From NCBI GenBank assembly GCA_007376185.1, contig VMFS01000003.1, forward strand, positions 25,983 to 89,982: a stretch of 64,000 bases of DNA, written 5' to 3'. The first letter of the stretch is position 1. Each line of letters begins with the position of its first letter. Below the pieces are notes generated by a model that was not told the origin of the DNA, searched no databases, and was given only the letters and a program-made list of their open reading frames with translations. Origin of the DNA: Parcubacteria group bacterium Gr01-1014_30 (lineage in GTDB: Bacteria; Patescibacteriota; Minisyncoccia; Minisyncoccales; 2-12-FULL-40-12). Below are positions 2,146-58,248 of the stretch, in pieces. The position numbers were made by a program, and so were the translations under genes.

Positions 2146-2206
2146 CGAGCAGATACGCCACTAGGGTGGCGTAAACGGCAAAGCCGCTGCTCGTTTGGTG
2201 TGGGGG
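2132..2206 (+). repeat. Long nested hairpin (REP-like, possible terminator) overlapping the stop codon of the upstream gene
   Basis: Arms cccccacaccataacgagcag / ctgctcgtttggtgtggggg. Inner hairpin acgccac-tagg-gtggcgt. Followed by tttgttg. The TAA stop at 2143-2145 lies inside the left arm. Confidence 0.7.
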
Positions 2207-43832: not shown

Positions 43833-43842
43833 AAATAATAAA

Positions 43843-45091: not shown

Positions 45092-45138
45092 TTGGGATAT
45101 TACTTGATTTTTGGACTAAGTCAAGATATGCTTTATAT

Positions 45139-46344
45139 ATGGAATACCGCATAAATTTTATAAACAACAGCTACCGCCGGTTTGCAAAGGCGCACAAAGA
45201 AGAGCTGATTTCGGCTTTTTGGGACTGTTTAGAAAGAGGGGCTTTGACCTTAAGAGAGGAGGTTTCTAAGTTTGAAGACAACTTGGCAAACTTTGTGGGC
45301 ACCAAATACGCAATAGGCGTTAACTCGGGCACAGACGCCTTGTTTTTATCTTGCAAGGCATTGGGAATAAAAGGAAACTGGAATTATCTCTTGGAAAGAG
45401 TGTATGCCGGAGAAATCACAATAGATGAGGCCAACAAATTGTTTGAGGGTGACGAACTAATTACGGTATCACACACTTTCATTGCCTCAATACAATGCAT
45501 TGTTAACTGTGGCGCCAAACCGGTGTTGGTTGATGTTGGCGAGAACGAATTGATGAATCCTGAACTCATTGAGCCGGCAATAACCGAGCGGACAAAAGCC
45601 ATTTTGCCAGTGCACTTTCACGGAAAGGTGTGCGATATGGACGCCATTTTGGACATAGCCGCTAAACATAATTTACACATTATTGAGGACGCGGCCCAGG
45701 CACTGGGTTCCTCTTATAAAGGTAAAATGGCAGGCAGTTTTGGAGACGCGGGGTGTTTCAGTTTTAACACGGCAAAGCTTTTGGGCGGTTTTGGCGATGG
45801 AGGAGGTATCGTTACAAACAGTAGAGATTTGTGCGAAAAACTTTATCTTTTGAGAAACCACTGGAATATGGCGCAAACGTCCGTAAGAATGTCCGATTTC
45901 CCCACGCCTGAAATTGTGCAGTGGGCGTGGAAGTCGCGGCTGGATAACGTGCAGGCCGCTTTGCTCAACGTCAAGTTCAAATACTACAGAGACCTTCTGG
46001 TCAGGCGCAAGCAGATTGCGGATATGTATTGCGAAGGATTGAAGGGCTTGCCTTTGAAACTGCCAAAGTATGGGGAAGGCGACGTGATTCAGGAATTTAT
46101 CGTGCGTATAGGAAATGAGGAGGAGCGGGAAAAGTTCAAGAAATTTATGGATGAAAAAGGCATTGAGGTTTTGATTCGCGAAACAACGCCAAATCACAAG
46201 GTGAAAAATTTGTACTTGGACCATTTTTCTTTGCCCGTGACCGAAAGCATTTCCAAGGACGCGGTAAGATTACCTACTTACCCTGAGCTTGAAGACAGCG
46301 AAGTGGATGAGATTATAGGGGCTATTAGAGAGTTCTATAAATAA
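45139..46344 (+). CDS. DegT/DnrJ/EryC1/StrS-family sugar aminotransferase
   Basis: GVNSGTDALFL. IIEDAAQALGS. SFNTAKLLGGFGDGGG (the Lys is present). Carries a ~35-aa insert (GNWNYLLERVYAGEITIDEANKLFEGDE). Confidence 0.8.
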   Translation: MEYRINFINNSYRRFAKAHKEELISAFWDCLERGALTLREEVSKFEDNLANFVGTKYAIGVNSGTDALFLSCKALGIKGNWNYLLERVYAGEITIDEANKLFEGDELITVSHTFIASIQCIVNCGAKPVLVDVGENELMNPELIEPAITERTKAILPVHFHGKVCDMDAILDIAAKHNLHIIEDAAQALGSSYKGKMAGSFGDAGCFSFNTAKLLGGFGDGGGIVTNSRDLCEKLYLLRNHWNMAQTSVRMSDFPTPEIVQWAWKSRLDNVQAALLNVKFKYYRDLLVRRKQIADMYCEGLKGLPLKLPKYGEGDVIQEFIVRIGNEEEREKFKKFMDEKGIEVLIRETTPNHKVKNLYLDHFSLPVTESISKDAVRLPTYPELEDSEVDEIIGAIREFYK

Positions 46345-46417
46345 ACCCCGTAATACAACTTCCAGCACGCTTCGCGTGCAAAATCGCTGAAAGCGACTGG
46401 AAGATGATATACGGGGT
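46345..46417 (+). repeat. Y-shaped structured repeat, copy 1 (candidate ncRNA / REP-like element)
   Basis: accccgta-atacaa-cttccag-[cacgc ttc gcgtg]-caaaa-[tcgct gaa agcga]-ctggaag-atgata-tacggggt. Confidence 0.7.
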
Positions 46418-46425
46418 AAATAAAC

Positions 46426-48309
46426 TTGTTTTCCGTTTCTAAAAAAATTTTCTTTGAAAATAGACCTTTAACAAAGTTGGCGTTTTTTACTTTGGCCGAC
46501 GCGGTCCTACTTGCTTTTTCGGTTCTCTTGGCTTTTTTGGTTAGATTTGAAGGCCAGATTCCACAAAGATATTATTTGAACATTTTGGGCATAATGCTTT
46601 TTGGCTGGGTTATTACTTTGCCTGTTTTTTATTTTTTTCGACTTTACCGTTTTACTTGGCGGTACGTCTCAACCCAGGAGCTGGTTCAGCTCGTTAAGGG
46701 CACAGCTCTCAGCTTTTTGTTGCTGACCGGAGTTTTTTTCGTTTTAAGAGACCTGACAATTTTTTCGGGATTTCCCAGATCAGCCCTTTTTATCACTTAC
46801 TTTTTTGTCTTCGTTTTGACGGGCGGCCTACGTTTTGCCAAGCGGCTTTGGCTGCAGCTTTCTCCTCTTGCTAAAATGGGATCTAAAGAGAGAATCTTGA
46901 TTGCGGGAGCTGGCGACGCAGGAGAGCTGATTTTGAGAAATATTTTAAACACAAAAAATCCCTACCAGGTTATCGGTTTTGTAGACGACTCGCATGCAAG
47001 ACAGGGAGTGTCTATACACGGCGTTGAGGTTTTTGGCAAAATCGCGGATATTCCGCGGATTGTAGTGAAAAAGAATATTGAAGGCTTGATTGTGGCTATG
47101 CCATCGGCCGACTCTAGAGCCATTCAAGAAGCCGTTCAAAAAGCAAGGGAAGCGGGGCTAAAAAAAATTAAGATAATTCCGCCGATTGAAGACGTATTTG
47201 CCGGCAAAGTTACTCTGGCGCAGCTGAGAGAAGTTCAAATGGAAGATTTGCTTTCCAGAGACGTTGTTTTGACCGACAGAAGGCCTATTGCAGAGTTCCT
47301 GAAAAACAAAGTTGTTCTGGTCACGGGAGCTGCCGGTTCCATAGGATCTGAACTATGTCGCCAGATAGCCCTTTTTGTTCCTTCTGCGTTAATTATGTTG
47401 GACCAGGACGAGACGGGTATTTTTAATATCGCAGAGGAACTAAAAGACCGTTTCCCCGACCTGAAAAGAGTCCCGCGGATTTGCGACATTGGCGATGAGG
47501 CAAAAATTGAAAGTATATTCTTGGAGTTTCGCCCTGCCGTTTTGTTTCACGCGGCGGCTTACAAGCACGTTCCTTTAATGGAGGAAAACTCAGACGAAGC
47601 CGTGAAAAACAACGTTTTTGGCACAAGAGTTGTGGCAGAGGCGGCTTTGAGAAACGGCGTGGACACCTTTGTGTACATAAGCACCGACAAAGCCGTAAAT
47701 CCGACGTCGGTGATGGGTGCGACAAAAAGGGTTGGCGAGATGATTTGTCAATCGTTGCAGGGACAAGGTAAAACAAAGTTTGCCTCGGTCAGATTCGGCA
47801 ACGTTTTGGACAGTCGGGGGAGCGTTATACCTGTTTTCCGTGAGAAAATCAAAAAGAGAGAACCGATCCAAGTAACCCATCCTGAAATGAAGCGTTATTT
47901 TATGATGACGTCGGAGGCATGCTTGCTGGTTTTGCAGGCAGGCGCCATGGGCAAAGGGGGTGAGGTTTTCGTTCTGGACATGGGTAATCCCATAAAAATT
48001 TTGGAACTGGCAAAAGAAATGATTAAATTGTCGGGCTTGGAACCCGACCGCGACATACCCATTGTTTTCACTGAGCCAAGACCCGGAGAAAAACTTTTTG
48101 AAGAGATAATGTCGGCTGAAGAGGGGACAATAGCTACTCAAAACCAAAAGATTTTCATAGCAAAACTGTCAGAAATTAACGGAAGTCAGTTAGAGCAAGG
48201 ACTGGAAAATTTAAAAAAAGAGGTATATAATGGCAAAAAAGAAGAGATAATCCAGGTTTTAAAAGAAGTTGTTCATAGTTACAAACCAAATGCCGTTTTC
48301 GCCGACTAA
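46426..48309 (+). CDS. Membrane-anchored nucleotide-sugar 4,6-dehydratase (CapD/PglF/WbpM family)
   Basis: Four N-terminal TM helices. VLVTGAAGSIGSELCRQI. YISTDKAVNPTSVMGATKR. Confidence 0.8.
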   Translation: MFSVSKKIFFENRPLTKLAFFTLADAVLLAFSVLLAFLVRFEGQIPQRYYLNILGIMLFGWVITLPVFYFFRLYRFTWRYVSTQELVQLVKGTALSFLLLTGVFFVLRDLTIFSGFPRSALFITYFFVFVLTGGLRFAKRLWLQLSPLAKMGSKERILIAGAGDAGELILRNILNTKNPYQVIGFVDDSHARQGVSIHGVEVFGKIADIPRIVVKKNIEGLIVAMPSADSRAIQEAVQKAREAGLKKIKIIPPIEDVFAGKVTLAQLREVQMEDLLSRDVVLTDRRPIAEFLKNKVVLVTGAAGSIGSELCRQIALFVPSALIMLDQDETGIFNIAEELKDRFPDLKRVPRICDIGDEAKIESIFLEFRPAVLFHAAAYKHVPLMEENSDEAVKNNVFGTRVVAEAALRNGVDTFVYISTDKAVNPTSVMGATKRVGEMICQSLQGQGKTKFASVRFGNVLDSRGSVIPVFREKIKKREPIQVTHPEMKRYFMMTSEACLLVLQAGAMGKGGEVFVLDMGNPIKILELAKEMIKLSGLEPDRDIPIVFTEPRPGEKLFEEIMSAEEGTIATQNQKIFIAKLSEINGSQLEQGLENLKKEVYNGKKEEIIQVLKEVVHSYKPNAVFAD

Positions 48310-50461
48310 AGAAAAATTAGAGAGAATATGTCTTACCATTATTGAGTGGGGTGTTTATTTGGCCTTGTTTTCGCCTTTGATTTTTATCAGGAATTATTTT
48401 TTCCCTTTTGTTGCCCCCAAGACGATTTTTTTCCGTCTCATTATTGACGTTGTTTTCATTGCCTACCTGATATTGGCGGTTTCAATTCCAAAATATCGCC
48501 CTAAAATAACTCCCTTGTCTTTGGCAATCGCCGCCTTTTTAGCGATATTCTTTTTAACCGCAATTTTCGGAGTGAGCTTTCAGAGGAGTTTTTGGAGCGT
48601 TTTTGAAAGAATGACCGGACTTTTAACCTTCTTGCACCTTTTCGCTTTTTACGTTGTTTTGACGGCAGTTTTTACAGAAAGAAAGCAGTGGGAAAAGATT
48701 TTATTTGTTTCAATCGTAGCAGCCCTTGTTATTTGTTTTTACGCTTTGCTCGCAAAAGACCCTTTGACTCGCGGCGGAGGGACTTTGGGCAACTCGTCTT
48801 TTCTTTCCTCTTACCTTCTTTTTAACATCTTCTTTGCCGCAATTTTGATGGTGTCAAAAGCCGGCCTCTGGAGAGTTGTTTCAGGGGTGGCTCTGGCTAT
48901 TTTCTTGTTTGTTTTGTTCTTTAACCCGGTTACCGTTACCAAGGGAGTTGTTTCTGCCCTTCTCATAGGAGCGGTTTTGCTTGGAACAGGATATATGTTT
49001 TTTTCGCAAAACAGACTTCTGAAAAAACTGGCTGCACCCTTTTTTATTTTGATGGTTGTCGCGGGAGTACTTATCGTCAAGAGTTACCATTTTCAAGACA
49101 GACCTTTTAATTTATTGCAAATTCCCGACAGGTCACGGCAAATTGTCTGGAGTGTTGGTTGGCAGGCCTGGCAGGAAAGGTTTTGGTTTGGCTGGGGTTG
49201 GGAAAACTTCAACGTTCCCTTCGCCAAACACTACGACCCCGAACTTCCCCGGACCGCCGACATCTGGTACGACCGAGTTCACAACGTTGTCTTGGACATG
49301 GGTGTAAGTTCTGGAGTTGTTGGACTGTTAAGTTATTTATCAATCTTTTTCTTTGCTGCTTTAGGGTTGTTAAGACGCGCCAAAGCTGATGCCAGAGGCA
49401 ACTTTGTTCCGTTGGCTCTGGTTGCCTTACTTATTGCTTATTTTCTGCAAAACCTTTGGGTTTTTGACATGATTTCAAGCTACCTAATGTTTTTCTTAGC
49501 GCTGGCTTTCATAGGTTTTATGATTTCTTCTCAGGAAACAGACCAAACCAAGCTCAAAACTGTTCCGCTGTCGCCGTTTGTCGCGGCTGTTCTAATAATT
49601 TTGACTGTATTTGTTTTTTTTATCGGGAATATTCAGCCAGCCAGAGCTTCAAAAGCAATTCTAAGGGGGCTTGCCTTGCCTTTGGAGCAGTCCCTGCCCG
49701 CTTTTCAGAGCGCGTTTAAATTATCTCCGATGGTGAAGTTTGAAGGGCCCGAACAACTATCTTTTAGAATTACTGGCTTACTTTCTCAAGACAATCTAAA
49801 TAAAGAGCTGCTTCGCCAAGGGCTCCAGCTGGCAGAGCAAGAATTTAAAAAAGCTATTGAAAGGAACCCTTCAGACTTCAGAATGTATTTATTTTTGGGC
49901 AGGCATTACAATTATTTTTACTCTTTTGACAACGACCAAAAAAAGTTGGACAAAGCCGATGAATCTTTGATGAGAGCTATGGAGTTGAGCCCCGCAAACC
50001 AGCAGGTCTATCTTAACTTCGCGCAATTGCGGTTTTTGCAGGGCAGGGATGAGGAAGCCCTTGATTTTTTGAAAAAAGCAAGGGATTTAGAACCCCTATT
50101 TTTCGGAGTCAGATGGCACTTGCTTCGCGGTTACAAACTGGCCGGAAAATACGACTTGGCCTTAGCCGAGTTAAAAGAATTAGAGTTAGCTGGCCTTGAT
50201 TGGTGGGAGATCTTGGAAACTTTGAGAGAAGGCATAGAAATTCTTGAAAAAACTGGAGAGGAGCTTTCAGTTTTGGTTCCGCTTTACGAAAAAGGCGTCC
50301 AACTGAACCCTCAAGACATCGCTTTGTGGGAGAAGTTGGTTAATGGCTATATTGGTCTGGGCGAAGTAGAAAAGGCGAAAACAGCTGCGGAAAAATTGCG
50401 CGAGATAAGACCGGAATTTGCGCCTCAAGTTGAACAGCTCTTGAAACAGATGGGGTTTTAG
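48290..50461 (+). CDS. O-antigen ligase/polymerase-like membrane protein with C-terminal TPR domain (paralog of 1-2145)
   Basis: WGWENFNVPFAKHYDP...YDRVHNVVLDMGVSSG. TPR-like C-terminus (FLGRHYNYFYSFDNDQKKLDKADESLMRAMELSP etc.). ATG at 48290. Confidence 0.75.
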   Translation: MPFSPTKEKLERICLTIIEWGVYLALFSPLIFIRNYFFPFVAPKTIFFRLIIDVVFIAYLILAVSIPKYRPKITPLSLAIAAFLAIFFLTAIFGVSFQRSFWSVFERMTGLLTFLHLFAFYVVLTAVFTERKQWEKILFVSIVAALVICFYALLAKDPLTRGGGTLGNSSFLSSYLLFNIFFAAILMVSKAGLWRVVSGVALAIFLFVLFFNPVTVTKGVVSALLIGAVLLGTGYMFFSQNRLLKKLAAPFFILMVVAGVLIVKSYHFQDRPFNLLQIPDRSRQIVWSVGWQAWQERFWFGWGWENFNVPFAKHYDPELPRTADIWYDRVHNVVLDMGVSSGVVGLLSYLSIFFFAALGLLRRAKADARGNFVPLALVALLIAYFLQNLWVFDMISSYLMFFLALAFIGFMISSQETDQTKLKTVPLSPFVAAVLIILTVFVFFIGNIQPARASKAILRGLALPLEQSLPAFQSAFKLSPMVKFEGPEQLSFRITGLLSQDNLNKELLRQGLQLAEQEFKKAIERNPSDFRMYLFLGRHYNYFYSFDNDQKKLDKADESLMRAMELSPANQQVYLNFAQLRFLQGRDEEALDFLKKARDLEPLFFGVRWHLLRGYKLAGKYDLALAELKELELAGLDWWEILETLREGIEILEKTGEELSVLVPLYEKGVQLNPQDIALWEKLVNGYIGLGEVEKAKTAAEKLREIRPEFAPQVEQLLKQMGF

Positions 50462-50471
50462 AAAATACTTG

Positions 50472-50779
50472 ACCCCGCCCTTGAAAAGCTCCTCTTCTTT
50501 CTGTATGCACTACGTCTATGTTTTGAGAATGAACAACAAAAGAGCATATATTGGTTTCACCACTGACCTTAGAAAAAGAGTTCAAGAACATAAAACAGGC
50601 AAAGTATTTACAACTAGCAAATATCTCCCAGTTCGTCTTGTCTACTACGAATGCTACCTATCTAGGGATGATGCAGAAAGAAGAGAAAGAATGCTCAAAC
50701 GATATGGCAGCACGTGGTCTCATTTGATGCGGAGAATAACAAAAAGTTTCAGAGTATAAGAGCTTTTCAAGGGCGGGGT
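50472..50779. mobile_element. GIY-YIG gene cassette bracketed by a perfect 20-bp inverted repeat
   Basis: accccgcccttgaaaagctc at 50472-50491. Its exact reverse complement gagcttttcaagggcggggt is at 50760-50779. Confidence 0.65.
50505..50759 (+). CDS. Small GIY-YIG nuclease family protein (COG2827/UPF0213-like)
   Basis: MHYVYVLRMNNKRAYIGFTTDLRKRVQEHKTGK...LVYYECYLSRDDAERRERMLK. Confidence 0.75.
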   Translation: MHYVYVLRMNNKRAYIGFTTDLRKRVQEHKTGKVFTTSKYLPVRLVYYECYLSRDDAERRERMLKRYGSTWSHLMRRITKSFRV

Positions 50780-50807
50780 TGACAAATTCATTTCTTTTTG
50801 CTAAGCT
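50779..50807 (+). promoter_or_regulatory. Sigma70-like promoter TTGACA-17-TAAGCT
   Basis: TTGACA at 50779-50784 overlaps the outer edge of the right inverted repeat. TAAGCT at 50802-50807. Confidence 0.35.
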
Positions 50808-50813
50808 ACTATA

Positions 50814-50971
50814 GTGAGTGCCCCCGTCCTCTAGGCTGTTTATTATCTTTTTTAGACAATCAGTCACTCAGAAACAAGAATGATTTATGAGGACATTATA
50901 TACGGCATAGAGGGCGGGGAACTTCGCTAAGTCGACGACAGGCTTTCCTCGAGCAAAGCCTGTCGTTTTTT
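50814..50971 (+). ncRNA. Candidate ~160-nt non-coding transcript (promoter to intrinsic terminator, no real ORF)
   Basis: Long-range stem ccccgtcctcta (50822-50833) with tagagggcgggg (50908-50919), with one G-U pair. Ends in terminator cgacaggcttt-cctcgagc-aaagcctgtcg-tttttt (50935-50971). The only ORF is a 16-codon micro-ORF. Confidence 0.35.
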
Positions 50972-51105
50972 ATTGAGATATGAGGACTTCATATTTTGAG
51001 AGGCAAAATGAGTATATTTACATCCCTGATTTAAGAACCTATGCCAACGCATAAACTCACCCCACTCTGCTACTCACTATATTTATACCCACTGCCCACT
51101 GGCTA

Positions 51106-51185
51106 TTGACAGCTTATGAGGGTTTGCTATACTGACAATGTGATGACACTCTGGAGTATCCGCAAGGATAGCTCCAGATTTTTTA
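51106..51185 (+). promoter_or_regulatory. Near-consensus promoter (TTGACA-16-TATACT) followed within ~20 nt by a terminator hairpin
   Basis: TTGACA at 51106-51111. TATACT at 51128-51133. Hairpin ctggagtatcc-gcaa-ggatagctccag at 51151-51177, then tttttt. Confidence 0.4.
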
Positions 51186-51219
51186 TTTCTGGCTTATTTC
51201 AGCTTTGAGCTTGCGTAAA

Positions 51220-51654
51220 TCAATGAATTTGGCTCATAATCCGCTTGCCTGCTTTCTTTATTCGGTCAATCGGCACAGCAAAATCACTGTCTCCTGACGA
51301 AAGTACTGCTGTATCATATTTCTCTTTTGTGTCATCCATTTCAAAAGCAAGCTCCATATCCAAATTACCTTTCCACTCCTCTTTGCCGCTTTTTCGGTCT
51401 TTAATCCTTTTTACTACTTTTGTCCTCAAGATATAGCCGTTTATCTCAAGCATATCTAAAAATTTCCTCTGTCCCGTATTGAATTCGTCCACGCCTTTGT
51501 AGATAAAACACTTCGTCTCATCGCCACACTCTTTTTTAAGGTAGCTCATCAGTTTTTGATACGATATTTTCCAACCCAAAGTTCGCTGGGAATAAAATAC
51601 ATTTTCGGCGTCTATAAAAACATAAACCCTGTCTTTCACAAATTGGTGTAGCAT
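51220..51654 (-). CDS. NYN/LabA-like (PIN-related) domain protein
   Basis: VYVFIDAENVFYS...KGNLDMELAFEM...AVLSSGDSDFAVPIDRIKKAGKR. Confidence 0.7.
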   Translation of the reverse strand: MLHQFVKDRVYVFIDAENVFYSQRTLGWKISYQKLMSYLKKECGDETKCFIYKGVDEFNTGQRKFLDMLEINGYILRTKVVKRIKDRKSGKEEWKGNLDMELAFEMDDTKEKYDTAVLSSGDSDFAVPIDRIKKAGKRIMSQIH

Positions 51655-51690
51655 AGAACTATTTTTTACTTTATCAGATTTTCGTAATTT

Positions 51691-51948
51691 TTGTCACCTA
51701 TTTTCTTGCAAGACAGATTAAAGTTATCAATCCACCCCGACAAAATCTTCATTAAAACTTTAGCTTCCGGCGTTGACTTCTTGGGCTGGGTTCATTTCCC
51801 GGACCACAGAGTTTTAAGAACAACGACAAAGAGGAGGATGTTCAGAAGAATACAGAAATCACCAGCTCAAGAAACTATAAACTCATACCTTGGCTTAATT
51901 AGATGGGGTAATGCTTGCAAGCTGCGAAATAGAATCTTAGCCGATTAA
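51691..51948 (+). pseudogene. C-terminal remnant of a reverse transcriptase (DGR/retron/group II-like thumb region)
   Basis: FLQDRLKLSIHPDKIFIKTLASGVDFLGWVHF...RRMFRRI...INSYLGLIRWGNACKLRNRIL. No palm (YxDD) region is encoded upstream. Confidence 0.55.
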
Positions 51949-52039
51949 ACCCATTTATTTTTCCCAAGTTTCTGATATAGTATGGTTGGGCGACAGGCAG
52001 CACTCACTAAAGACTTAGTATTGGAGTTAACTCTGTCGC

Positions 52040-52205
52040 CCATTTGTGGTAATACAACTTTCAGAAGACGAAGCCAACTTTCGTCTCCGGAAGTGGTACA
52101 ACCACGTTCCTTGTAAAGATTGGTGCGGGGCAAGCGGGGAAACCTGTGGGTTTCTAGGTCGGGAGTTTCCGCTCCGCGGAAAACTCTCGCGACCCGACCG
52201 ACCCC
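52040..52205 (+). repeat. Cluster of degenerate palindromic modules in the murB leader
   Basis: ggtaatacaactttcag...ccggaagtggtacaacc resembles the Y-repeat. Also gaaacc-tgtg-ggtttc. Nested hairpin ggtcggg-[agtttccgc tcc gcggaaaact]-ctcgcga-cccgacc. Confidence 0.45.
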
Positions 52206-52213
52206 CTTCCGAT

Positions 52214-53173
52214 ATGGCGCTTTTGTTCAAAAAGAAAGTTTTACTAAAAAACCACACCACTTTTCGCATCGGCGGGCCGGCCAAGTGTTTTTACGAAGCG
52301 AAAACGGCAAAACATTTGATTGCCGCCTTGAGAAAAGCCAGAGAGTTGAAGTTGCCTTTTTTTGTTTTGGGTGAAGGCAGCAACCTTTTGGTTTCCGACA
52401 AGGGCTTTAACGGTTTGGTTGTTAAGATTCAAGATTCAAGATTCAAGATTCAAGATTCTTATCTTTGGGCGGCATCGGGCGTTTCTCTTTCAACTTTGGT
52501 GAGAGAAACCGGAAAACGAGGCCTTTCCGGCCTTGAGTGGGCTGGCGGTTTGCCAGGAACCTTTGGCGGAGCTGTTTTTGGGAACGCCGGCGCTTTTGGC
52601 GGAGAAACCAAAGACAATATTATTTGGGTTGAGGCCTTGGACCCCCACACCAATTTTGGTATGGGGGCGAGCAAAAACCTTAAAGTGAAGCGGTTTACTA
52701 AAGCGCAGTGCAAGTTTGGGTACAGAACTTCAATTTTTAAGGAGCGGGGATGGCTTGTGCTGTCTGCGTTGCTTTCGCTCAAAAGAGGAGACAAAAAGGC
52801 AATTCAAGGCGTAGCTTTAGCTCACATAAAACAGCGGAAAGAAAGGGGCCCTCTGGAATATCCCAACGCAGGCAGTATTTTTAAGAACTGCAAGGTGACT
52901 GGCGTGCCAAAAAAAGTTGCGGGAATGTTTAAAGGAGTTATAAAAGAAGACCCGTTTCCGGTTATTCCAACGGCCGCCATTATAGCCAAAACTCCGGGCC
53001 TAATGGGAATTAAAATAGGCGGAGCCCAAGTTTCCAAGAAGCATCCAAATTTCATCATAAACACTGGCGGAGCTAAAGCGATTGACGTGTTGTCGCTGAT
53101 AAACTTGGTGAAAAGAAAAGTGAAAAAAAGTTTCGGGGTGGACATAGCAGAAGAAATACGCTATATTGAGTAA
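52214..53173 (+). CDS. murB: UDP-N-acetylenolpyruvoylglucosamine reductase
   Basis: LLKNHTTFRIGGPAKCFYEAKT...LPFFVLGEGSNLLVSDKGFNG...FGYRTSIF...GSIFKN. The start was set at the ATG at 52214; the upstream extension is non-coding repeat DNA. Confidence 0.85.
   Translation: MALLFKKKVLLKNHTTFRIGGPAKCFYEAKTAKHLIAALRKARELKLPFFVLGEGSNLLVSDKGFNGLVVKIQDSRFKIQDSYLWAASGVSLSTLVRETGKRGLSGLEWAGGLPGTFGGAVFGNAGAFGGETKDNIIWVEALDPHTNFGMGASKNLKVKRFTKAQCKFGYRTSIFKERGWLVLSALLSLKRGDKKAIQGVALAHIKQRKERGPLEYPNAGSIFKNCKVTGVPKKVAGMFKGVIKEDPFPVIPTAAIIAKTPGLMGIKIGGAQVSKKHPNFIINTGGAKAIDVLSLINLVKRKVKKSFGVDIAEEIRYIE
52424..52458 (+). repeat. Perfect heptanucleotide tandem repeat (aagattc x5) inside murB
   Basis: Read directly. 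Encodes KIQDSRFKIQDS. Confidence 0.85.
52642..52667 (+). repeat. 26-nt palindrome inside murB sharing the cccccacacca arm with the 2132-2206 hairpin
   Basis: cccccacacc-aatttt-ggtatggggg. Encodes DPHTNFGMGA. Confidence 0.55.
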
Positions 53174-53176
53174 TCA

Positions 53177-53668
53177 ATGAAGGAAGGAAAAAGAAAGCCG
53201 AAAAAATCTAAGAAACGCGCCGCCAAACCGGCAGGGGCGCTTGAAAAGCGCGCCCAAAAAGCTGTTGCGCAAAAGGCGGCCAAATACTTTCAGGCGTTGG
53301 GACGCAGGAAAACATCTGTGGCAAGGGTGCGGCTTTGGACTCGAGGAGATGGGAAGTTTCTTATCAACGGGAAGCCGCTTGAAGCTTATTTTCCGTTAAG
53401 CGAGTTAAGGCAACAGGTTTTAGCGCCTTTGACAGAGATGGGTTCCGAGGACAAATTTACGATTTCCGCGCTGGTCAAAGGGGGTGGTTTTAGAGGGCAG
53501 GCAGAGGCCTTGCGCCATGGCTTGGCCAGAGCTCTTGTTTTTTTCAACGCCGATTTCAGAAAACGTTTGAAAAAGGCAGGATTTTTGACTCGCGACCCAA
53601 GGATGCGCGAAAGGAAAAAGTTCGGATTGAAAAGGGCAAGGAGGGCCCCGCAGTGGGCAAAACGTTAA
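53177..53668 (+). CDS. rpsI: 30S ribosomal protein S9 with a Lys/Ala-rich N-terminal extension
   Basis: GRRKTSVARVRL...GGGFRGQAEALRHGLARAL...LTRDPRMRERKKFGLKRARRAPQWAKR. Confidence 0.9.
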   Translation: MKEGKRKPKKSKKRAAKPAGALEKRAQKAVAQKAAKYFQALGRRKTSVARVRLWTRGDGKFLINGKPLEAYFPLSELRQQVLAPLTEMGSEDKFTISALVKGGGFRGQAEALRHGLARALVFFNADFRKRLKKAGFLTRDPRMRERKKFGLKRARRAPQWAKR

Positions 53669-53677
53669 ATTGCGTTC

Positions 53678-53738
53678 GGCAACGAACCCCGCCCTCTAAG
53701 CAGCGAAAATATAAAGCATAGAGGGCGGGGTTGTTGCC
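53678..53738. repeat. Long GC-rich hairpin of the CCCCGCCCT family (no T-tract)
   Basis: ggcaacgaaccccgccctcta-[20-nt loop]-tagagggcggggttgttgcc. Confidence 0.7.
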
Positions 53739-53753
53739 TCACTTAAACTTAAC

Positions 53754-54443
53754 ATGTTGAAGGAACTCATAGACAAATTTTATTTGGACAGGCAAAAGGA
53801 TAGAGAACAGAAGCATTTTTACATTACCGACGCCGGAAAGTGCGGCCGGGCCGTGTTTTTCAAGTTCAAAAACGCGCCGCGCAGAGAACTTGACGCCAAC
53901 ATTCTGCGTCTTTTTGACCACGGCGACCATATACATCAGCTCATTATGAAGCCGCTTTTGAGTACGAGGGACATTCACGTGGTGGCTTCAGAAGTCAACA
54001 TTCCTCCTCAAGAACTGATATCTGGAAGAGCGGACGCCATCTTGTCAGACGGCTCCGACTTGTACGTGCTGGATATTAAAAGCATGAACAGCATGGTTTT
54101 CAGAAACCTGCAAACTCCCAAGGAAGAAAACGTTGACCAGATCCAACTTTACCTGCACTACTTCAAAATACCCAAAGGCATTTTGCTTTATGTTAACAAA
54201 GACAATCAGGACTTAAAAGAGTTCTTGGTGAACTATGACAAAGCCCGGGCGTTAAAGTTGCTGAACGCTCTGGCCGAACTCAAGAAAAAAATTGACTCAA
54301 ACCTGATTCCCGACCGCCTTGAAGACTACCCCAATAACTGGCAGTGTCAGTACTGCCCTTTTAGGACTGTCTGCGACCAAGCCGGTCCCGGGGAGGTTTC
54401 TTGGGAAGAGTTTAAAGCAAAAGTTCAGGGCTCAGGGGATTAG
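53754..54443 (+). CDS. Stand-alone Cas4/RecB-like PD-(D/E)XK nuclease with Fe-S cysteine set
   Basis: N-terminal DAGKCGR. GRADAIL...LYVLDIKS (D...DxK). QIQLYLHY (QxxxY). C-terminal WQCQYCPFRTVC. Confidence 0.65.
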   Translation: MLKELIDKFYLDRQKDREQKHFYITDAGKCGRAVFFKFKNAPRRELDANILRLFDHGDHIHQLIMKPLLSTRDIHVVASEVNIPPQELISGRADAILSDGSDLYVLDIKSMNSMVFRNLQTPKEENVDQIQLYLHYFKIPKGILLYVNKDNQDLKEFLVNYDKARALKLLNALAELKKKIDSNLIPDRLEDYPNNWQCQYCPFRTVCDQAGPGEVSWEEFKAKVQGSGD

Positions 54444-55307
54444 GGCCGAGGATGCGTATAGGTTTCCTTCACTCAGGACGTAGAGACGTTTGTTTTCGTG
54501 GCTGAAGAATATTTTTGGCTCTGCGAACTCGGCCAAGTCAACGATGTTTAGCCCTTCACGGTCGTCAATTTCGGCGACTTTTATTTTTTCTCCGACCGAA
54601 AAAACCAAATAGTAATCGTCCATCCAAAAAACGTCAGAGACCTTTTGGGCAAAACGAGCCACAAGTACTTTATCTCCAGGGTACCTGCGCGGTTGTCCCA
54701 GTTCTTCTTTCAGGAACAGCACCCATATTTCAGAGTTTGAAAAGTAGAGCAGTTTTTTGGCATCTGGAGAGAGTTTAGCGCCTTTTGCTTCTTCAAATAA
54801 ATTTTCAAAGGAGCCGGCGGCCTCATCAAATAAGTACAGAACTTGCGTTTCTTCGTCAATGTAATAATCTATTTTGACCGAGTTTTCGGACGATGTTACT
54901 GCCGAAGGCGGCATTTTTGCAGCGTTTTGGGCCAGTTCCTCAAAAGCTGGATTTTTAGGCAGTAAAATGACGTTTTTGGCGTCGGTTACCTGTTTTTGGA
55001 CAACCTGTAAAGTTTTTTTCCAGGAGTGATAGTCATCTTTGCGGATTTCCACGTCGTAGTTTTTGGGAATTAAGTTGTAAATGTAGGCGGCTCCGAAAAA
55101 AGGGTCGGTTCTTTTAACAAGCTTGCCGTCCAAAAAAATCTGCGCGTTTCTTGGCCAACCTTTAAAGTAAAAACCGCCGGTTTGGGTTATTTTTTTGTTT
55201 TCAAGATCAATGCGGTATCCCAAAGAGTAGCCAATGACCAGGGGAGTTATTACTGTGAAAATAATTGCGAGGGACATTATTAAGATTACGCGAGTTTTTT
55301 TGGCCAT
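54432..55307 (-). CDS. Membrane-anchored PEGA-domain protein
   Basis: N-terminal TM helix. PRNAQIFLDGKLV...YDVEIRKDDYHSWKKTLQV is PEGA-like. Confidence 0.5.
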   Translation of the reverse strand: MAKKTRVILIMSLAIIFTVITPLVIGYSLGYRIDLENKKITQTGGFYFKGWPRNAQIFLDGKLVKRTDPFFGAAYIYNLIPKNYDVEIRKDDYHSWKKTLQVVQKQVTDAKNVILLPKNPAFEELAQNAAKMPPSAVTSSENSVKIDYYIDEETQVLYLFDEAAGSFENLFEEAKGAKLSPDAKKLLYFSNSEIWVLFLKEELGQPRRYPGDKVLVARFAQKVSDVFWMDDYYLVFSVGEKIKVAEIDDREGLNIVDLAEFAEPKIFFSHENKRLYVLSEGNLYASSALIP

Positions 55308-55439
55308 AACAATGTGATTTTACCCCGTTAGAAAGGTATTTTTCAAGTCCGCAGTGATAATTCGTTTTATGGCGAAGCCGACTTGCGTCTCTGAAAGAGG
55401 CATTACCACTTTGTTGAAAAGGAAAGGTGCGGTGTATTG

Positions 55440-55511
55440 ACCCCGTAATACAACTTTCGGCGCGCTAAAGCGCAAAATCGCCGAAGGCGACCGAAAGATG
55501 ATATACGAGGT
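55440..55511 (+). repeat. Y-shaped structured repeat, copy 2
   Basis: accccgta-atacaa-ctttcgg-[gcgc...gcgc]-aaaa-[tcgcc gaa ggcga]-ccgaaag-atgata-tacgaggt. Confidence 0.7.
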
Positions 55512-55527
55512 ATTGACTTAAATTTTG

Positions 55528-55536
55528 TGGTATAAT
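55528..55536 (+). promoter_or_regulatory. Extended -10 promoter element TGgTATAAT
   Basis: tggtataat lies ~40 nt upstream of the DUF378 gene start. Confidence 0.4.
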
Positions 55537-55574
55537 AAGACAAAGGTCGAGTTTTTAAACCGGAATAAACTAAG

Positions 55575-55811
55575 ATGAACGCTTTACACATAGTTGCTTT
55601 TACCCTTTTAGTGGTTGGCGGTTTGAACTGGCTGCTGGTTGGGTTGGTTGGTTGGGATGTGGGCGCGTTATTTGGCGGCCAAGGGGCAGCAGTTTCAAGA
55701 GTCATTTACATATTAGTGGGACTTGCAGCCATCTTTGAGGCCGCAACTCATGGTTCAACGTGCAAGGCCTGTTCAGGTATGATGAAAGGGCAAAGTCAGC
55801 CCATGGCTTGA
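55575..55811 (+). CDS. DUF378-family small membrane protein
   Basis: IVAFTLLVVGGLNWLLVGLVGWDVGALFGG...RVIYILVGLAAI. Confidence 0.6.
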   Translation: MNALHIVAFTLLVVGGLNWLLVGLVGWDVGALFGGQGAAVSRVIYILVGLAAIFEAATHGSTCKACSGMMKGQSQPMA

Positions 55812-55837
55812 GTTTGTTGATAAGCAAGTGAATGATG

Positions 55838-55868
55838 GCCCCGTATACCGTTTATACGGGGCTTTGAT
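55838..55868 (+). terminator. Hairpin with a weak T-tract; shares its stem with the outer stem of the Y-repeat
   Basis: g-ccccgtata-ccgtt-tatacgggg-c then tttgatt. Confidence 0.5.
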
Positions 55869-55886
55869 TAAAGGTATACAAAAGAT

Positions 55887-57125
55887 ATGAAAAAGTATTT
55901 TTTACTTTTGTTGATTTTAGCCATATTTTTGGTTCTTTATTTTTGGCCTTTTCCTGGAGTTCAAAAGCCAGCAGAGCCAGCCTTGGAGACGGAAGTTACG
56001 GACCAAATAACCGTTGATGAAGTTGAAGAACCAGATGAAGGTGAAGAGTCGGAAGGTCTTGAGGTGGTCGCCCGAGAACTGCAAATTCCTTGGGAAATAG
56101 CTTTCCTGCCTGCGCCTGACCGCCTGTCTGCGCAGGCAGGCGCAGGCAGGCAGGAAGGTTTGCCTGATGGCACTTTACTGGCAACCGAAAGGCCGGGAAA
56201 CTTGGCAGTTATTCGTGACGGAAAGGTCGTTAGTCGCATTGCGGTTTCCGGCGTTTACCACAGCGGCGAAGGGGGCTTGCTAGGCATGGCTTTGCATCCA
56301 GATTTCAGGGAGAACAAATTTTTGTATCTCTATTTCACATACAGGGAAGGCAGCCAAACCAAAAACAAAGTGGAGAGATATATTTTTGACGGCGACATTT
56401 TGTCAGACAGAAAAATTATTATTGACAACATTCCGGGAGCTGCAAATCACAACGGCGGCAGAATCGCTTTCGGGCCAGACAGCTACTTATATATAACTAC
56501 TGGAGACGCGCAGGCGCCTAATTTGGCGCAGAACATCAATTCGCTTGCCGGAAAGGTTTTGCGTTTAAGAGACGATGGTTCCATTCCCGAGGACAACCCC
56601 TTTGCTTCGGCCGGCTCAGCACAAGCTGACGCGGTTTGGTCTTTTGGCTATCGCAATCCGCAAGGCCTGGCGTGGGACCAAGCAGGGAGGTTATGGAGCA
56701 CAGAGCACGGCCCTTCTTCTTTGGTGTTGCCGAATTGCTGCCAGGACGAGGTTAATTTGATTGAGAAAGGAGCTAACTACGGCTGGCCAGATAGTGTTGG
56801 AGGTAAAGTAAAAGCAGGAACTATGGCGTCAAAACTGCATTCAGGCGGCGACACTTGGGCGCCATCTGGCGCGGCATACTATAACGGCTCTTTGTTTTTT
56901 GGCGGCCTAAGAGGCCAGAGTTTATATGAGGTGGTTTTACAGGGAGAGGAAGTTGTTGAATTAAAGAGACACTTTAAAGGAGAGTTCGGGCGGATCCGGG
57001 GGGTTTCTCTGGAGCCTGACGGTTTTTTGTACATTATCACTTCCAACAAAGACGGCAGAGGCGTTCCCCAAGCCGACGACGACAAGATAATTCGACTGAA
57101 CCCCAAACTCATCTTTAGTTATTAA
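55887..57125 (+). CDS. PQQ-dependent soluble sugar (glucose/sorbosone) dehydrogenase-like beta-propeller, membrane anchored, with an in-frame insert
   Basis: LGMALHPDF...YLYFTY, NHNGGRIAFGPDSYLYITTGD, GYRNPQGLAWD, GANYGWP. N-terminal TM helix plus an acidic linker. Confidence 0.75.
   Translation: MKKYFLLLLILAIFLVLYFWPFPGVQKPAEPALETEVTDQITVDEVEEPDEGEESEGLEVVARELQIPWEIAFLPAPDRLSAQAGAGRQEGLPDGTLLATERPGNLAVIRDGKVVSRIAVSGVYHSGEGGLLGMALHPDFRENKFLYLYFTYREGSQTKNKVERYIFDGDILSDRKIIIDNIPGAANHNGGRIAFGPDSYLYITTGDAQAPNLAQNINSLAGKVLRLRDDGSIPEDNPFASAGSAQADAVWSFGYRNPQGLAWDQAGRLWSTEHGPSSLVLPNCCQDEVNLIEKGANYGWPDSVGGKVKAGTMASKLHSGGDTWAPSGAAYYNGSLFFGGLRGQSLYEVVLQGEEVVELKRHFKGEFGRIRGVSLEPDGFLYIITSNKDGRGVPQADDDKIIRLNPKLIFSY
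56109..56162 (+). repeat. In-frame GC-rich palindromic module (54 nt, 18 codons)
   Basis: Encodes PAPDRLSAQAGAGRQEGL between IAFL and PDGTLLATER. Arms cctgcctgcgc / gcgcaggcagg. Confidence 0.75.
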
Positions 57126-57196
57126 ACAACCTTAAACAGCACTTTCAACAACTGTACAGTTTTAATTTTGGTCAAATTTGGTAGAATGATAAAATT

Positions 57197-57565
57197 ATGT
57201 CAATTTGGATGGTGACAATCATTTTACTCGCAGCCGCGCTTTCGGGCTGGCTGCTTTTGAAAAGAAACCCTGACCGTTATATTCACGAGAAAACATCGCC
57301 AATGAACATTTTCTTCAAGTGGGGTCACGCTTGGCACCATATTTTTAAGGTCGCGATAATCATTTTGGTTATGATTGTCGTTTTTTCTCTTTACAAGTAT
57401 CTTTTGGCGGCTTCTAGGGTTTTTGCGTTAACAGTAGCGGTCTTGGCCGGAGTTATTCTTTCTGGCGGAAAGGAATTGCTGGATAAATATATTACCTTGG
57501 ACGATGTCATCTCCTCTGCCTTAGCTATAATTGCGGGCTTTTTGTTGCTGTTTTTTCTTTTTTAA
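57197..57565 (+). CDS. Small membrane protein, unknown function
   Basis: Four predicted hydrophobic helices. No motif. Confidence 0.35.
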   Translation: MSIWMVTIILLAAALSGWLLLKRNPDRYIHEKTSPMNIFFKWGHAWHHIFKVAIIILVMIVVFSLYKYLLAASRVFALTVAVLAGVILSGGKELLDKYITLDDVISSALAIIAGFLLLFFLF

Positions 57566-57592
57566 TAGCGTGTTATATAAAAAGTATAGCTT

Positions 57593-58177
57593 ATGGTTTT
57601 AACCGAGTCGGTTCAAAAATTAAAGAAGGGAGACAAGGCGCCGGATTTTTCTTTGAAAGGCGTTGACGACAAAATATACTCTTTGAAGGACTTTGAAGGC
57701 CTGCCTGCCCCCCTGCGCGGTCAGGCGCAGGCAGGCAAACAAGGCCTTTTGGTTATATTTATGTGTAACCACTGCCCTTACGTGAGAGCGAAACTGCCGG
57801 TCATTGCCGAGCTTTACAAAAAGTGGGGTACTAGGATTTCTTTTTGCGGCATCAACAGCAATGACTCTGGATACGAAGGCGAAGGCATGGACAATATGAA
57901 GGTTTTTGCCAAAGAGAGAGCAATTGCTTTTCCTTACTTGTTTGACACACTTCAAGATGTTGCCAAGGCCTATGGAGCAACTTGTACTCCCGACCCGTTT
58001 TTATTCAATAAAAATTCTGAACTGGTTTTCCACGGACGAATTGACGACGCCACGGGCCCGGGCGAGACGGCCAAAGAGAAGACCATGGACGAGAATATCT
58101 CAAAAATGCTTTCAGGCCAAGAAATTTCTGACGAGTTCAAACCGTCAATGGGATGCTCCATTAAGTGGACCCCGTAA
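57593..58177 (+). CDS. Thioredoxin-fold (redoxin-like) protein with an in-frame insert; its stop codon lies inside a repeat
   Basis: KAPDFSLKGVDDKIYSLKDFEG...LLVIFMCNHCPYV (CxxC). The TAA at 58175-58177 lies within ccccgTAAtac of Y-repeat copy 3. Confidence 0.65.
   Translation: MVLTESVQKLKKGDKAPDFSLKGVDDKIYSLKDFEGLPAPLRGQAQAGKQGLLVIFMCNHCPYVRAKLPVIAELYKKWGTRISFCGINSNDSGYEGEGMDNMKVFAKERAIAFPYLFDTLQDVAKAYGATCTPDPFLFNKNSELVFHGRIDDATGPGETAKEKTMDENISKMLSGQEISDEFKPSMGCSIKWTP
57701..57745 (-). repeat. In-frame palindromic module (45 nt, 15 codons), same family as 56109-56162 but in opposite orientation
   Basis: The reverse complement tgcctgcctgcgcctgaccgcgcag matches tcctgcctgcgcctgaccgcctgtctgcgcag of the other copy. 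Encodes LPAPLRGQAQAGKQG. Confidence 0.7.
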
Positions 58178-58248
58178 TACAACTTTCGGTGTGTTCTTGA
58201 AAAGAACACAATTATCGCCGCAGGCGACCGAAAGATGATATACGGGGT
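58169..58248 (+). repeat. Y-shaped structured repeat, copy 3
   Basis: accccgta-atacaa-ctttcgg-[tgtgttctt gaaa agaacaca]-attat-[tcgcc gca ggcga]-ccgaaag-atgata-tacggggt. It exactly fills the gap between two convergent genes. Confidence 0.7.

Follow-up and report, generated by a model that had tools for sequence, protein, structure and literature searches.

What kind of element are the three Y-shaped repeats of this locus, in which the fold is kept while the sequence varies? The repeats lie on the forward strand of the window, the whole 64-kb stretch of DNA that we analysed, at 46345–46417, 55440–55511 and 58169–58248, as the initial annotation had claimed, and the 14-mer CCCCGTAATACAAC has exactly three occurrences in the window, all of them within the three Y copies. 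Each core is abutted on both sides by a short direct repeat, which we read as a target duplication:

46346..46416, forward strand: copy 1 core, 71 nt; TAAA duplication at 46342–46345 and 46417–46420
55441..55510, forward strand: copy 2 core, 70 nt; TATTGA duplication at 55435–55440 and 55511–55516
58170..58247, forward strand: copy 3 core, 78 nt; TGGA duplication at 58166–58169 and 58248–58251

Fold and conservation of the Y family

The fold common to the copies comprises an outer stem, P1 (ACCCCGUA/UACGGGGU; one position is mutated, G to A, in copy 2), a 3x3 loop (AUA/AUA), a CA/UG segment, an A.A mismatch, a second stem, P2, and two inner hairpins. The folding z-scores of copies 1, 2 and 3 are −6.8, −4.7 and −7.2; the reverse strand is as foldable as the forward strand, and folding as DNA is equally good. 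The compensated pairs described for P2 (cttCcAg/cTgGaag against cttTcGg/cCgAaag) and for the inner hairpin P4 (tcgcT..Agcga against tcgcC..Ggcga) were confirmed. With filters off, a search of the window with a covariance model of the three copies gave no additional full copy.

Copy 1 follows a DegT-family aminotransferase gene (45139–46344), the TAA stop of which is part of the left TAAA; when extended, its direct repeat reaches TAAATAAA. Copy 3 is inserted in the final codons of an AhpC/TSA gene (57593–58177), the present stop being the element's GTAA, and a convergent thioredoxin-like gene ends beside it at 58252. A gene-end position had been claimed for every copy; it is true of these two, both at 3' ends, but not of copy 2, which lies 133 nt and 64 nt from the starts of two divergent genes (54432–55307 on the reverse strand and the DUF378 gene 55575–55811 on the forward strand). 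A TGgTATAAT promoter noticed by eye beside copy 2 gained no support from a consensus scan, and the adjoining 291-aa gene, weighed as a possible enzyme, encodes a membrane-anchored protein with no Pfam match. The three copies are co-oriented, on the strand with most genes and with positive GC skew.

Scans of public data, in which the loop motifs served as search patterns, returned about 135 further Y copies once one chance match had been removed. These represent 73 unique cores of 63–151 nt, most of them 63–84 nt and a few 117–151 nt long, with no ORF inside. The hosts are Saccharibacteria, Paceibacterota and other Patescibacteria MAGs, one unclassified 'bacterium' MAG and 85 metagenome loci, including groundwater; one short contig binned as Gammaproteobacteria also carries a Y element. 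Scans of viral contigs gave chance matches and one divergent 136-nt copy (L040), and a BLAST search of copy 1 against plasmids gave no match.

The central claim of the initial annotation, that structure is conserved while sequence varies, was borne out. The share of paired cells is 98.2% over 45 distinct sequences, and in 12 pairs both sides change; 0 of 500 shuffles matched the observed pairing percentage, the both-sided cell count or the covariation score, and slid controls were 29–45% paired. P2 alone occurs as at least 13 fully complementary haplotypes. Together P1 and P2 make up imperfect terminal inverted repeats of ~20 nt, more than 95% Watson-Crick paired in the 73 unique cores. Mismatches numbered 10 G.T against 5 A.C, which gives neither strand a sign of G.U tolerance. 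Among the collected copies the ATA/ATA loop does not vary, in part a collection effect, because the search patterns fixed those motifs; GTTGATATAC variants occur in copies recovered by the covariance model alone. The motifs ATACAA and ATGATA, described as conserved and single-stranded, are indeed conserved, but what they represent is a fixed asymmetry of the two terminal inverted repeats, and their regions contain TAA and TGA, both in use as stop codons.

No Rfam family matched: the whole window at gathering thresholds gave no match, and two copies searched in E-value mode returned miRNA and snoRNA models far below threshold. Hammerhead, k-turn/C-D box and sarcin-ricin motifs were compared with the loops by eye, and none fits.

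Insertion at many unrelated sites

The Y element inserts with duplication of its target, is missing from orthologous and homologous sites, and occurs as tandem and nested insertions. An exact 4-bp direct repeat abuts the core at 61 of 88 unique sites, most of the others having 3, 5 or 6 bp, whereas randomly paired flanks carry such a repeat in 7% of cases. The duplication has the form YNNR, and 88 distinct flanks are found among the Y copies. Only about 3 of 89 sites are internal to ORFs; in-frame insertions occur in murD and enolase.

Removal of copy 3 together with one TGGA restores the AhpC end as ..KWITRK-stop, and AhpC homologues end in ..CSIKW plus 1–6 variable residues. The orthologous AhpC locus in L036 (75% identity, same upstream gene) reads AAGTGGAAGTAG, without the element; a distant AhpC orthologue (L035) has different neighbours. 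When the exact DUF378 protein beside copy 2 was looked up in search of empty sites, every contig returned also had the element. Tandem arrays contain up to five copies with a common 4–5-nt spacer, and some mix different variants. In L117 a 68-nt copy with a CAAG duplication is nested in the nuclease ORF of a full-length element, and in L094 the same site is uninterrupted. The reading of the Y repeats as mobile DNA is well supported by these sequence comparisons.

A nuclease-bearing element with the same ends

On alignment, the Y copies share their ends and internal segments with an element that bears a nuclease gene. L094 carries a 312-nt form with ends identical to those of the Y copies, the ORF of which encodes a GIY-YIG domain (PF01541, E = 1.8e-18), and full-length elements measure 312–316 nt. 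The nuclease has 467 close homologues, mostly of 93 or 101 aa. Short copies align to the full element in blocks 1–31, 103–121, about 140–149 and 293–312 (block identities 16/17, 30/31 and 19/20). Window copies 1 and 2 match the parent clearly at their ends only; in copy 3 there is a further match, between the P3 hairpin (TGTGTTCTT/AAGAACACA) and two parts of the full-length GIY-YIG ORF, its start and its IEEH codons. Short and full-length forms occur on one contig in both L094 and L117; the 64-kb window has no full-length Y-type copy. The miniature Y is thus well supported, by the alignment, as an internal-deletion derivative of the roughly 312-bp nuclease element in several lineages. We consider it very probable that the Y repeats are non-autonomous elements of the MITE type, cut down from this GIY-YIG nuclease element. 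The palindromic MITE against which the initial annotation had set its own reading is in essence what these repeats are, though the covariation is strong.

All full-length copies, at several distinct loci, are flanked by (T/C)ATG ... TATG, and the right ATG is the start of the downstream gene. In L144 and L171 the abutting co-directional upstream gene stops at the element's GTAA. Identical full-length copies stand in several contexts, some of which may have arisen as chimeras when metagenomes were assembled across the repeat.

The window contains a related nuclease element with ends that differ from those of the Y type:

50473..50778, forward strand: related GIY-YIG element, 306 bp, with 19-bp inverted repeats and a TTGA duplication

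Its terminal inverted repeats (CCCCGCCCTTGAAAAGCTC, at 50473–50491 and 50760–50778) are perfect, the TTGA duplication lies at 50469–50472 and 50779–50782, and its sole product is an 84-aa GIY-YIG nuclease (ATG 50505 to TAA 50759; PF01541, E = 1e-12). An internal helix (50492–50506/50671–50685) starts 13 nt 5' of the ATG of this ORF and spans it. Further GIY-YIG mini-genes with their own inverted repeats and duplication were found in L112 (CTTG) and L090 (TAA); at least four diverged nuclease subfamilies are organised in this way.

Could the Y element be an ordinary MITE, moved in trans by a classical DDE transposase that recognises the CCCNGTA... repeats, with the GIY-YIG gene a passenger or a separate selfish gene in the same palindrome? 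Inverted repeats with a short variable duplication (3–6 bp) are typical of DDE insertion sequences, abutted copies one duplication length apart resemble IS dimers, and no joining activity is known for GIY-YIG nucleases. We nevertheless regard this as unlikely. A search with solo left and right ends returned forms of 134–316 nt only, containing the nuclease gene or non-coding DNA, and no transposase-sized interior. Every nuclease subfamily comes with inverted repeats and a duplication of its own, and the left/right asymmetry of the ends is conserved across distant CPR lineages. Moreover, the Y-family nuclease ORF crosses the left repeat and terminates inside the right one; an ORF that spans both repeats argues for a co-evolved unit, not a passenger.

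Very improbable is a functional RNA with this structure, co-transcribed with the gene upstream and acting as a 3'-UTR stabiliser, terminator or insulator, processing site or small RNA, its fold being under RNA selection. Strong covariation in all helices and stable folding would agree with it, as would the orientation of copies at gene 3' ends, which is sense in 20 cases against 6 (p = 0.009), 13 of the 20 sense copies lying exactly on a stop codon; the stop codons, which the element has on its plus strand only, account for this sense bias. The insertion data contradict it as the primary identity, whether as an RNA gene or as a 3'-UTR motif: target duplications, element-free orthologous sites, tandem and nested copies, and the in-frame copies inside murD and enolase. 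Against it, too, are copy 2, which adjoins no gene's 3' end, the equal folding of the reverse strand, the G.T and A.C mismatch counts without a wobble signature, and the Rfam result. In the initial annotation the fold was attributed to a functional RNA or to single-stranded DNA; the RNA half is not supported as the primary identity, and the other half is plausible, since all four Y helices are found in the full-length parent too, which makes a folded single strand or cruciform a plausible cis-acting substrate.

A known single-strand recombination or transposition site (an integron attC, a REP/REPIN with RAYT, or an IS200/IS605-type site with an HUH enzyme) has hardly any probability left: the imperfect palindrome with conserved unpaired bases, the conserved structure with variable sequence, the location at gene ends and the common orientation of the three window copies would all suit it, but the known systems do not duplicate their target, insertion sites differ in sequence, the REP GTAG head is absent, and in most copies no GTTRRRY complements ATACAAC. 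The right side reads GATGATA in 68 of the 73 cores and GTTGATA in 5, neither of which fits GTTRRRY, and, as targets are duplicated, attC identity was rejected. An integron array was likewise rejected: insertion sites are scattered, and a scan of the ORFs from 43 to 63 kb of the window showed no gene for an integrase, a RAYT or TnpA. No HUH gene was seen near any Y copy.

Relation to known systems and proposed mechanism

Bacterial MITEs, such as Correia/NEMIS of Neisseria, RUP of pneumococcus and ERIC, are small, non-coding, hairpin-forming inverted repeats with a short target duplication; they have many copies at gene borders and derive from a longer coding element with common ends. The Y element is likewise small and non-coding, with terminal inverted repeats, target duplication, many unrelated sites and empty sites, and has a longer coding element with common ends. 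The gene of that element encodes a GIY-YIG nuclease, not a known transposase, and the parent is a GIY-YIG-only unit of roughly 312 bp, not a DDE insertion sequence. The 4-bp YNNR duplication (not TA) also differs, as do the two inner hairpins and the fixed 3x3 mismatch, kept with covariation across distant CPR lineages.

The palindromic selfish repeats of Rickettsia (RPE) are tolerated in frame inside protein-coding genes, and the Y copies in murD, enolase and the AhpC end are analogous; the Y family differs in the clarity of its target duplications, in having a known coding relative, in how few of its sites (about 3 of 89) are internal to ORFs, and probably in sequence. Free-standing GIY-YIG homing endonuclease genes (T4 Seg proteins, I-TevI) resemble the full-length element in being selfish, with the nuclease as sole product, placed between host genes and using host expression signals. 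The 93–101-aa protein differs in having little beyond the catalytic domain and no DNA-binding domain. Instead of a single long homing site there are many unrelated sites that share only (T/C)ATG or YNNR, and inverted repeats, target duplications and non-coding derivatives are present. The NCBIfam group I intron endonuclease model TIGR01453 scored 22.9 bits against the nuclease (cut-off 56).

In Pfam, GIY-YIG is the sole domain of the 84–101-aa nucleases, a minimal form that they have in common with UPF0213/YhbQ-type (URI) proteins and Slx1. Among solved structures the closest are 1zg2 (E = 3e-6) and 1ywl, both stand-alone GIY-YIG proteins of the UPF0213 type; the match to the structure-specific nuclease SLX1 is weak and non-significant (E = 0.15). 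Slx1 cuts branched and hairpin DNA, which would fit structure-directed cutting by the element nuclease. UPF0213/YhbQ-type proteins and Slx1 are treated as ordinary cellular genes, whereas here inverted repeats and a target duplication enclose the gene, and miniature derivatives of it exist. REP/REPIN-RAYT and attC are also extragenic imperfect palindromes, with important unpaired bases and with more conservation of structure than of sequence. For each there is a single dedicated enzyme, which acts on the folded single strand and is of another class (HUH, tyrosine recombinase); neither system duplicates its target, and the GTAG head and the RYYYAAC/GTTRRRY cores are absent here.

In our reading of the Y shape, the outer stems P1 and P2 are the two terminal repeats paired together. 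P3 is a long-range helix that in the parent links the start of the nuclease ORF to the IEEH codons, and P4 a second internal hairpin, matching the parent's 3' hairpin or a mid-ORF segment, depending on the subfamily. The TAA of the left end (GTAATAC) terminates an upstream host ORF and the TGA of the right end (GA-TGA-TA) the nuclease ORF. Insertion duplicates a target of 4 bp (range 3–6) of the form Y-N-N-R, and surviving copies lie mostly at gene borders, the short ones on stop codons (TAAA, TTGA) and full-length ones on a start codon ((T/C)ATG). There the left duplication copy supplies the nuclease ORF with an in-frame ATG, the 101-aa start of gene callers, and the right one preserves the ATG of the host gene.

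Whether the GIY-YIG nuclease of the full-length copies mobilises both forms we judge to be evenly balanced. Recognition would be of the paired ends or of the Y in its folded form (a hairpin or a cruciform), and the cuts would be staggered, at the base of P1 and in YNNR targets. GIY-YIG enzymes act by hydrolysis, and we know of no strand-transfer activity among them; a nuclease-only transposon would therefore need host joining, left here to host polymerase and ligase. More tentatively, and with the odds somewhat against it, the roughly 312-bp parent could be an autonomous transposable element with a minimal 93–101-aa GIY-YIG nuclease as its only enzyme, which would recognise folded or cruciform ends, make a 4-nt staggered cut and leave completion to host repair. 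Its insertions would be adapted to fall exactly on the start and stop codons of the compact operons of CPR bacteria and to leave these intact. To our knowledge, no autonomous insertion sequence as small as this has been described. In the literature searched, we found neither a CPR MITE nor a GIY-YIG element that combines inverted repeats with target duplication, nor any precedent for a nuclease-only transposon.

If the nuclease drives movement, this would be a new, extremely small transposon type, in which a bare structure-specific nuclease and host repair suffice for mobility; an autonomous parent would found a transposon class outside DDE, HUH, serine and tyrosine chemistry. Strongly covarying, RNA-like folds of CPR genomes can be mobile palindromes, and many small 'GIY-YIG family' CPR genes probably belong to selfish elements, not to repair. 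Host ORFs acquire called starts or stops inside such elements, as AhpC does here. The family also illustrates how a parasite persists in genomes of roughly 1 Mb with almost no intergenic space, by carrying its own stop codons and borrowing a host start codon through the target duplication. Unexplained non-intron insertions, short ones and others bearing GIY-YIG, have been reported in CPR rRNA genes (PMC11270868), and Y/GIY-YIG elements may account for them.

Three smaller features of the window were also recorded:

55838..55862, no strand assigned: short hairpin CCCCGTATA-ccgtt-TATACGGGG with the P1 sequence, following the DUF378 gene
52046..52103, forward strand: possible decayed copy, with the left end GTGGTAATACAACTTTCAG, one hairpin and CCGGAAG kept and the right end altered
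2132..2206, forward strand: second Y-shaped palindromic element of unrelated sequence, with an outer stem and two inner hairpins

The first does have CCCCGTA../..TACGGGG in common with the Y copies, as had been noticed, but it scores only 17 bits (E = 0.015), resembles an ordinary terminator, has no flanking duplication and may be only a terminator. Similar 31-nt hairpins (CCCCGTATAgctcc..TATACGGGG) elsewhere are nested in Y elements or in tandem with them. The second, at or upstream of the murB start, had been called a degenerate relative (52040–52100); it shares the exact 12-mer GTAATACAACTT, but the covariance model missed it at E ≤ 10, and it is at most a decayed Y copy. The third has the same architecture as the Y copies and is flanked by TTTG at 2128–2131 and 2207–2210, and the upstream ORF (43–2145) has its stop inside the element.

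Three structured repeats in the window

The three Y-shaped repeats lie where the initial annotation had placed them, and all are on the plus strand. The direct repeats that flank them were read by eye. The window belongs to a CPR bacterium: its AhpC protein has an identical counterpart in Parcubacteria group bacterium Gr01-1014_30, encoded on a contig of 180.7 kb.

46345–46417, plus strand: copy 1, which immediately follows a DegT-family aminotransferase gene at its stop codon; the flanking direct repeat is TAAA and extends to TAAATAAA.
55440–55511, plus strand: copy 2, flanked by divergent genes; direct repeat TATTGA.
58169–58248, plus strand: copy 3, flanked by convergent genes; direct repeat TGGA.

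The window contains exactly three occurrences of the left 14-mer CCCCGTAATACAAC, and the right 15-mer is found at the same three positions. All copies share one fold, in which the outer stems P1 and P2 carry two inner hairpins, P3 and P4, that are separated by AAAA. P1 is formed by ACCCCGUA/UACGGGGU and is followed inward by a 3x3 internal loop AUA/AUA, the two pairs CA/UG, an A.A mismatch and the 7-bp P2. The compensated base pairs listed in the initial annotation are real. Folding z-scores range from -4.7 to -7.2; the reverse complements fold equally well, as do the copies when folded as DNA.

Rfam gave no match in the whole window at gathering thresholds and just far-sub-threshold miRNA and snoRNA noise in E-value mode. 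A covariance model built from the three copies, run on the 64 kb with filters off, identified no further full copy. Two further sites had been proposed as relatives: the hairpin at 55838–55862 reaches 17 bits with this model, and the 'degenerate relative' at 52040 shares an exact 12-mer with the copies but was missed by the model.

Covariation and insertion of the repeat family

Species-representative genomes scanned with both loop motifs yielded 32 loci. Eighteen copies were confirmed by covariance model, mostly in CPR MAGs of Saccharibacteria (eight copies in one MAG), Paceibacterota and Patescibacteria; one copy comes from a 'bacterium' MAG that is unclassified, and another from a short contig with a Gammaproteobacteria binning. 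A metagenome scan added 85 loci, almost all genuine and many from groundwater. Genomes and metagenomes together hold 135 copies with 73 unique cores (the element without its flanking target duplications) of 63–151 nt, one chance hit having been removed.

The stems covary strongly. Position 4 of P1 is C-G in 35 cores, A-T in 32 and G-C in 2, and P2 occurs in at least 13 fully complementary haplotypes. When 45 distinct sequences were aligned with the model, 98.2% of the cells were paired and 12 pairs were changed on both sides; no shuffle out of 500 attained the values seen for pairing percentage, count of both-sided cells or covariation score, and pairing fell to 29–45% in a slid-partner control. 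Nothing in the mismatch counts (10 G.T vs 5 A.C) points to RNA from either strand. Because the loop motifs were built into the search patterns, their invariance is partly a collection effect; copies found solely by the covariance model carry a right-side variant, GTTGATATAC, in which a base pair takes the place of the A.A mismatch, and they retain the ATA/ATA loop.

The repeat family is inserted, mobile DNA, and insertion is accompanied by a short duplication. An exact 4-bp direct repeat abuts the core (CCCNG...CNGGG) at 61 of 88 unique insertion sites, compared with 7% expected from randomly paired flanks, and most of the other 27 have repeats of 3, 5 or 6 bp. The commonest duplications (TAAA, 13; TTGA, 11; CTTG, 8; CAAG, 5; CACG, 4) fit Y-N-N-R. 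The eighth P1 pair of the initial annotation consists of the last base of the left duplication and the first base of the right one.

Copy 3 provides an example with an empty counterpart. The AhpC/TSA ORF now ends at a TAA within CCCCGTAA of this copy. An orthologue that is 75% identical and has the same upstream gene lacks the element, the sequence there being ...AAGTGGAAGTAG. AhpC homologues end in CSIKW followed by 1–6 variable residues, and deleting copy 3 with one TGGA in silico brings back ...KWITRK*, which overlaps the convergent gene's stop. Elsewhere, tandem arrays of up to five copies have a 4–5-nt spacer in common, and some combine different variants. Some copies harbour, within P3, a nested 31-nt hairpin with P1-like ends and CTCG flanks. 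In one Saccharibacteria lineage murD and enolase contain in-frame, sense insertions of the element that add 24 residues; the enolase insert is found in no solved enolase.

Of the copies situated at the 3' ends of genes, 20 are in sense and 6 in antisense (p = 0.009), and 13 of the 20 sense copies have their boundary exactly at the host stop codon. The conserved motifs contain TAA and TGA on the plus strand and no stop on the minus strand; purifying selection on gene-end insertions is therefore enough to account for the sense bias.

Several smaller observations were made at these loci. The same enolase gene (L024, 5394–5520) has a second insert of about 12 aa around the palindrome GGCGGGCCCGCC, giving 36 inserted aa in total relative to solved enolases. 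In the window, the AhpC and glucose/sorbosone dehydrogenase ORFs contain in-frame palindromes CCTGCCTGC...GCAGGCAGG (57700–57735 and 56103–56156); the one in AhpC adds 12 residues (LPAPLRGQAQAG) that most homologues lack. Insertions at five loci (L021, L060, L061, L079, L111) share the right flank AAAGGTCG... and differ in their left flanks, which, judged from these flanks, suggests a recurrent target beside a conserved sequence.

A GIY-YIG parent element

Longer forms were located by searching for unpaired left and right ends. Locus L094 contains a 312-nt element with the same ends as the short copies and a TATG duplication. Its single ORF runs from a GTG within the 5' arm of P3 to the TGA of the conserved GA-TGA-TA and encodes a GIY-YIG nuclease (PF01541, E = 1.8e-18). 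At a second locus (L117) the nuclease ORF of the same element is interrupted by a 68-nt short copy with CAAG flanks. Close homologues of the L094-type nuclease number 467, most of them 93 or 101 aa long, and the DNA of several of these revealed full-length elements of 312–316 nt at different loci.

The short copies descend from this nuclease element, with which they share their ends. By alignment they retain blocks 1–31, 103–121, about 140–149 and 293–312 of the full element, so that P3 of copy 3 (TGTGTTCTT/AAGAACACA) consists of the beginning of the nuclease ORF base-paired to the IEEH codons of that ORF. Predicted folds of the full-length forms retain P1, P2 and P3 as well as the loops.

Every one of these full-length elements has (T/C)ATG at its left border and TATG at its right border. 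The 101-aa form of the nuclease starts at the left-flank ATG and reads through the left repeat; at two loci (L144, L171) a co-directional, abutting upstream gene stops at the GTAA of the element; and the right-flank ATG is the start of a downstream host gene (DUF134, DUF72, murG and others). Insertions are found at Y-N-N-R sites on start and stop codons, by preference or by survival. Duplications also track subfamilies: one Saccharibacteria MAG has CTTG, the L029 type TAAA, types whose P2 is CTTCGGC have TTGA, and all full-length copies have (T/C)ATG. Either nuclease variants that choose different targets or selection for start and stop codons could lie behind this match. Identical full-length elements at L154–L163 have left and right flanks recombined between contigs, either by recombination between copies or through metagenome assembly chimeras across the 312-bp repeat.

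Every miniature copy has P1 and P2, and most have one or both inner hairpins. Given these retained parts and those kept in the full-length folds, paired ends or a folded hairpin or cruciform would be the likeliest substrate. The nuclease of the full-length copies may act on this substrate in both forms, making staggered cuts at the foot of P1 and at the target, after which host enzymes would fill and seal the gaps. We consider the chance that the nuclease acts on both forms in this way to be about even. Mobilisation by a classical transposase is the main alternative, and no precedent for mobilisation by a nuclease plus host repair was found in the literature searched. As to the nuclease proposed to do the cutting, stand-alone UPF0213 proteins (1zg2, 1ywl) come closest to it, and the structure-specific nuclease SLX1 gives a weak, non-significant match (E = 0.15).

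The repeats agree with MITEs in every testable respect. They do not show what defines attC sites, REP/RAYT or IS200/IS605-type elements, nor what defines classical GIY-YIG homing endonuclease genes. The literature searched describes neither a CPR MITE nor a GIY-YIG element with inverted repeats and target duplication; GIY-YIG ORFs that are not homing-like have been reported in non-intron insertions of CPR rRNA genes (PMC11270868). There is a substantial chance that the parent element represents a new class of transposon.

Other elements of similar plan

Two further elements were found in the window.

50473–50778: 306-bp GIY-YIG element, bounded by inverted repeats of 19 bp (CCCCGCCCTTGAAAAGCTC) that match perfectly; its duplication is TTGA.
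2132–2206: second Y-shaped palindrome of unrelated sequence, with outer stem CCCCCACACCA/TGGTGTGGGGG and two inner hairpins.

The sole coding content of the first is an 84-aa GIY-YIG nuclease ORF, which the source contig's public annotation (L033) does not call; an internal helix starts 13 nt upstream of its ATG and spans it. GIY-YIG mini-genes at L112 (repeat CCCCGCCCTTTCT, duplication CTTG) and L090 (repeat CCCTGTTAAATAA, duplication TAA) share this plan and have different ends. The palindrome at 2132–2206 has a DNA fold z of -10 and TTTG on both flanks, and the upstream ORF (43–2145) has its stop within it.

An intergenic stretch of about 370 nt (44719–45092) is closed by a 27-bp helix (85% complementary) and has several hairpins inside it. 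A GIY-YIG ORF is absent, Rfam gives no match even at E <= 1, and the stretch could be an unclassified structured RNA or another element. Hairpins 3' of genes at 53686–53731 (stem CCCCGCCC../..GGGCGGGG) and 43842–43871 (stem CCCCGGC../..GCCGGGG) resemble ordinary terminators and have no flanking duplication; the former has 9 nt in common with the repeat of the window nuclease element. At L098 (about 5400–5900, minus strand) a GIY-YIG ORF adjoins a tRNA gene. A second copy of roughly the first 20 nt of this tRNA gene lies upstream and is interrupted by two CCCCGAC..GTCGGGG mini hairpins.
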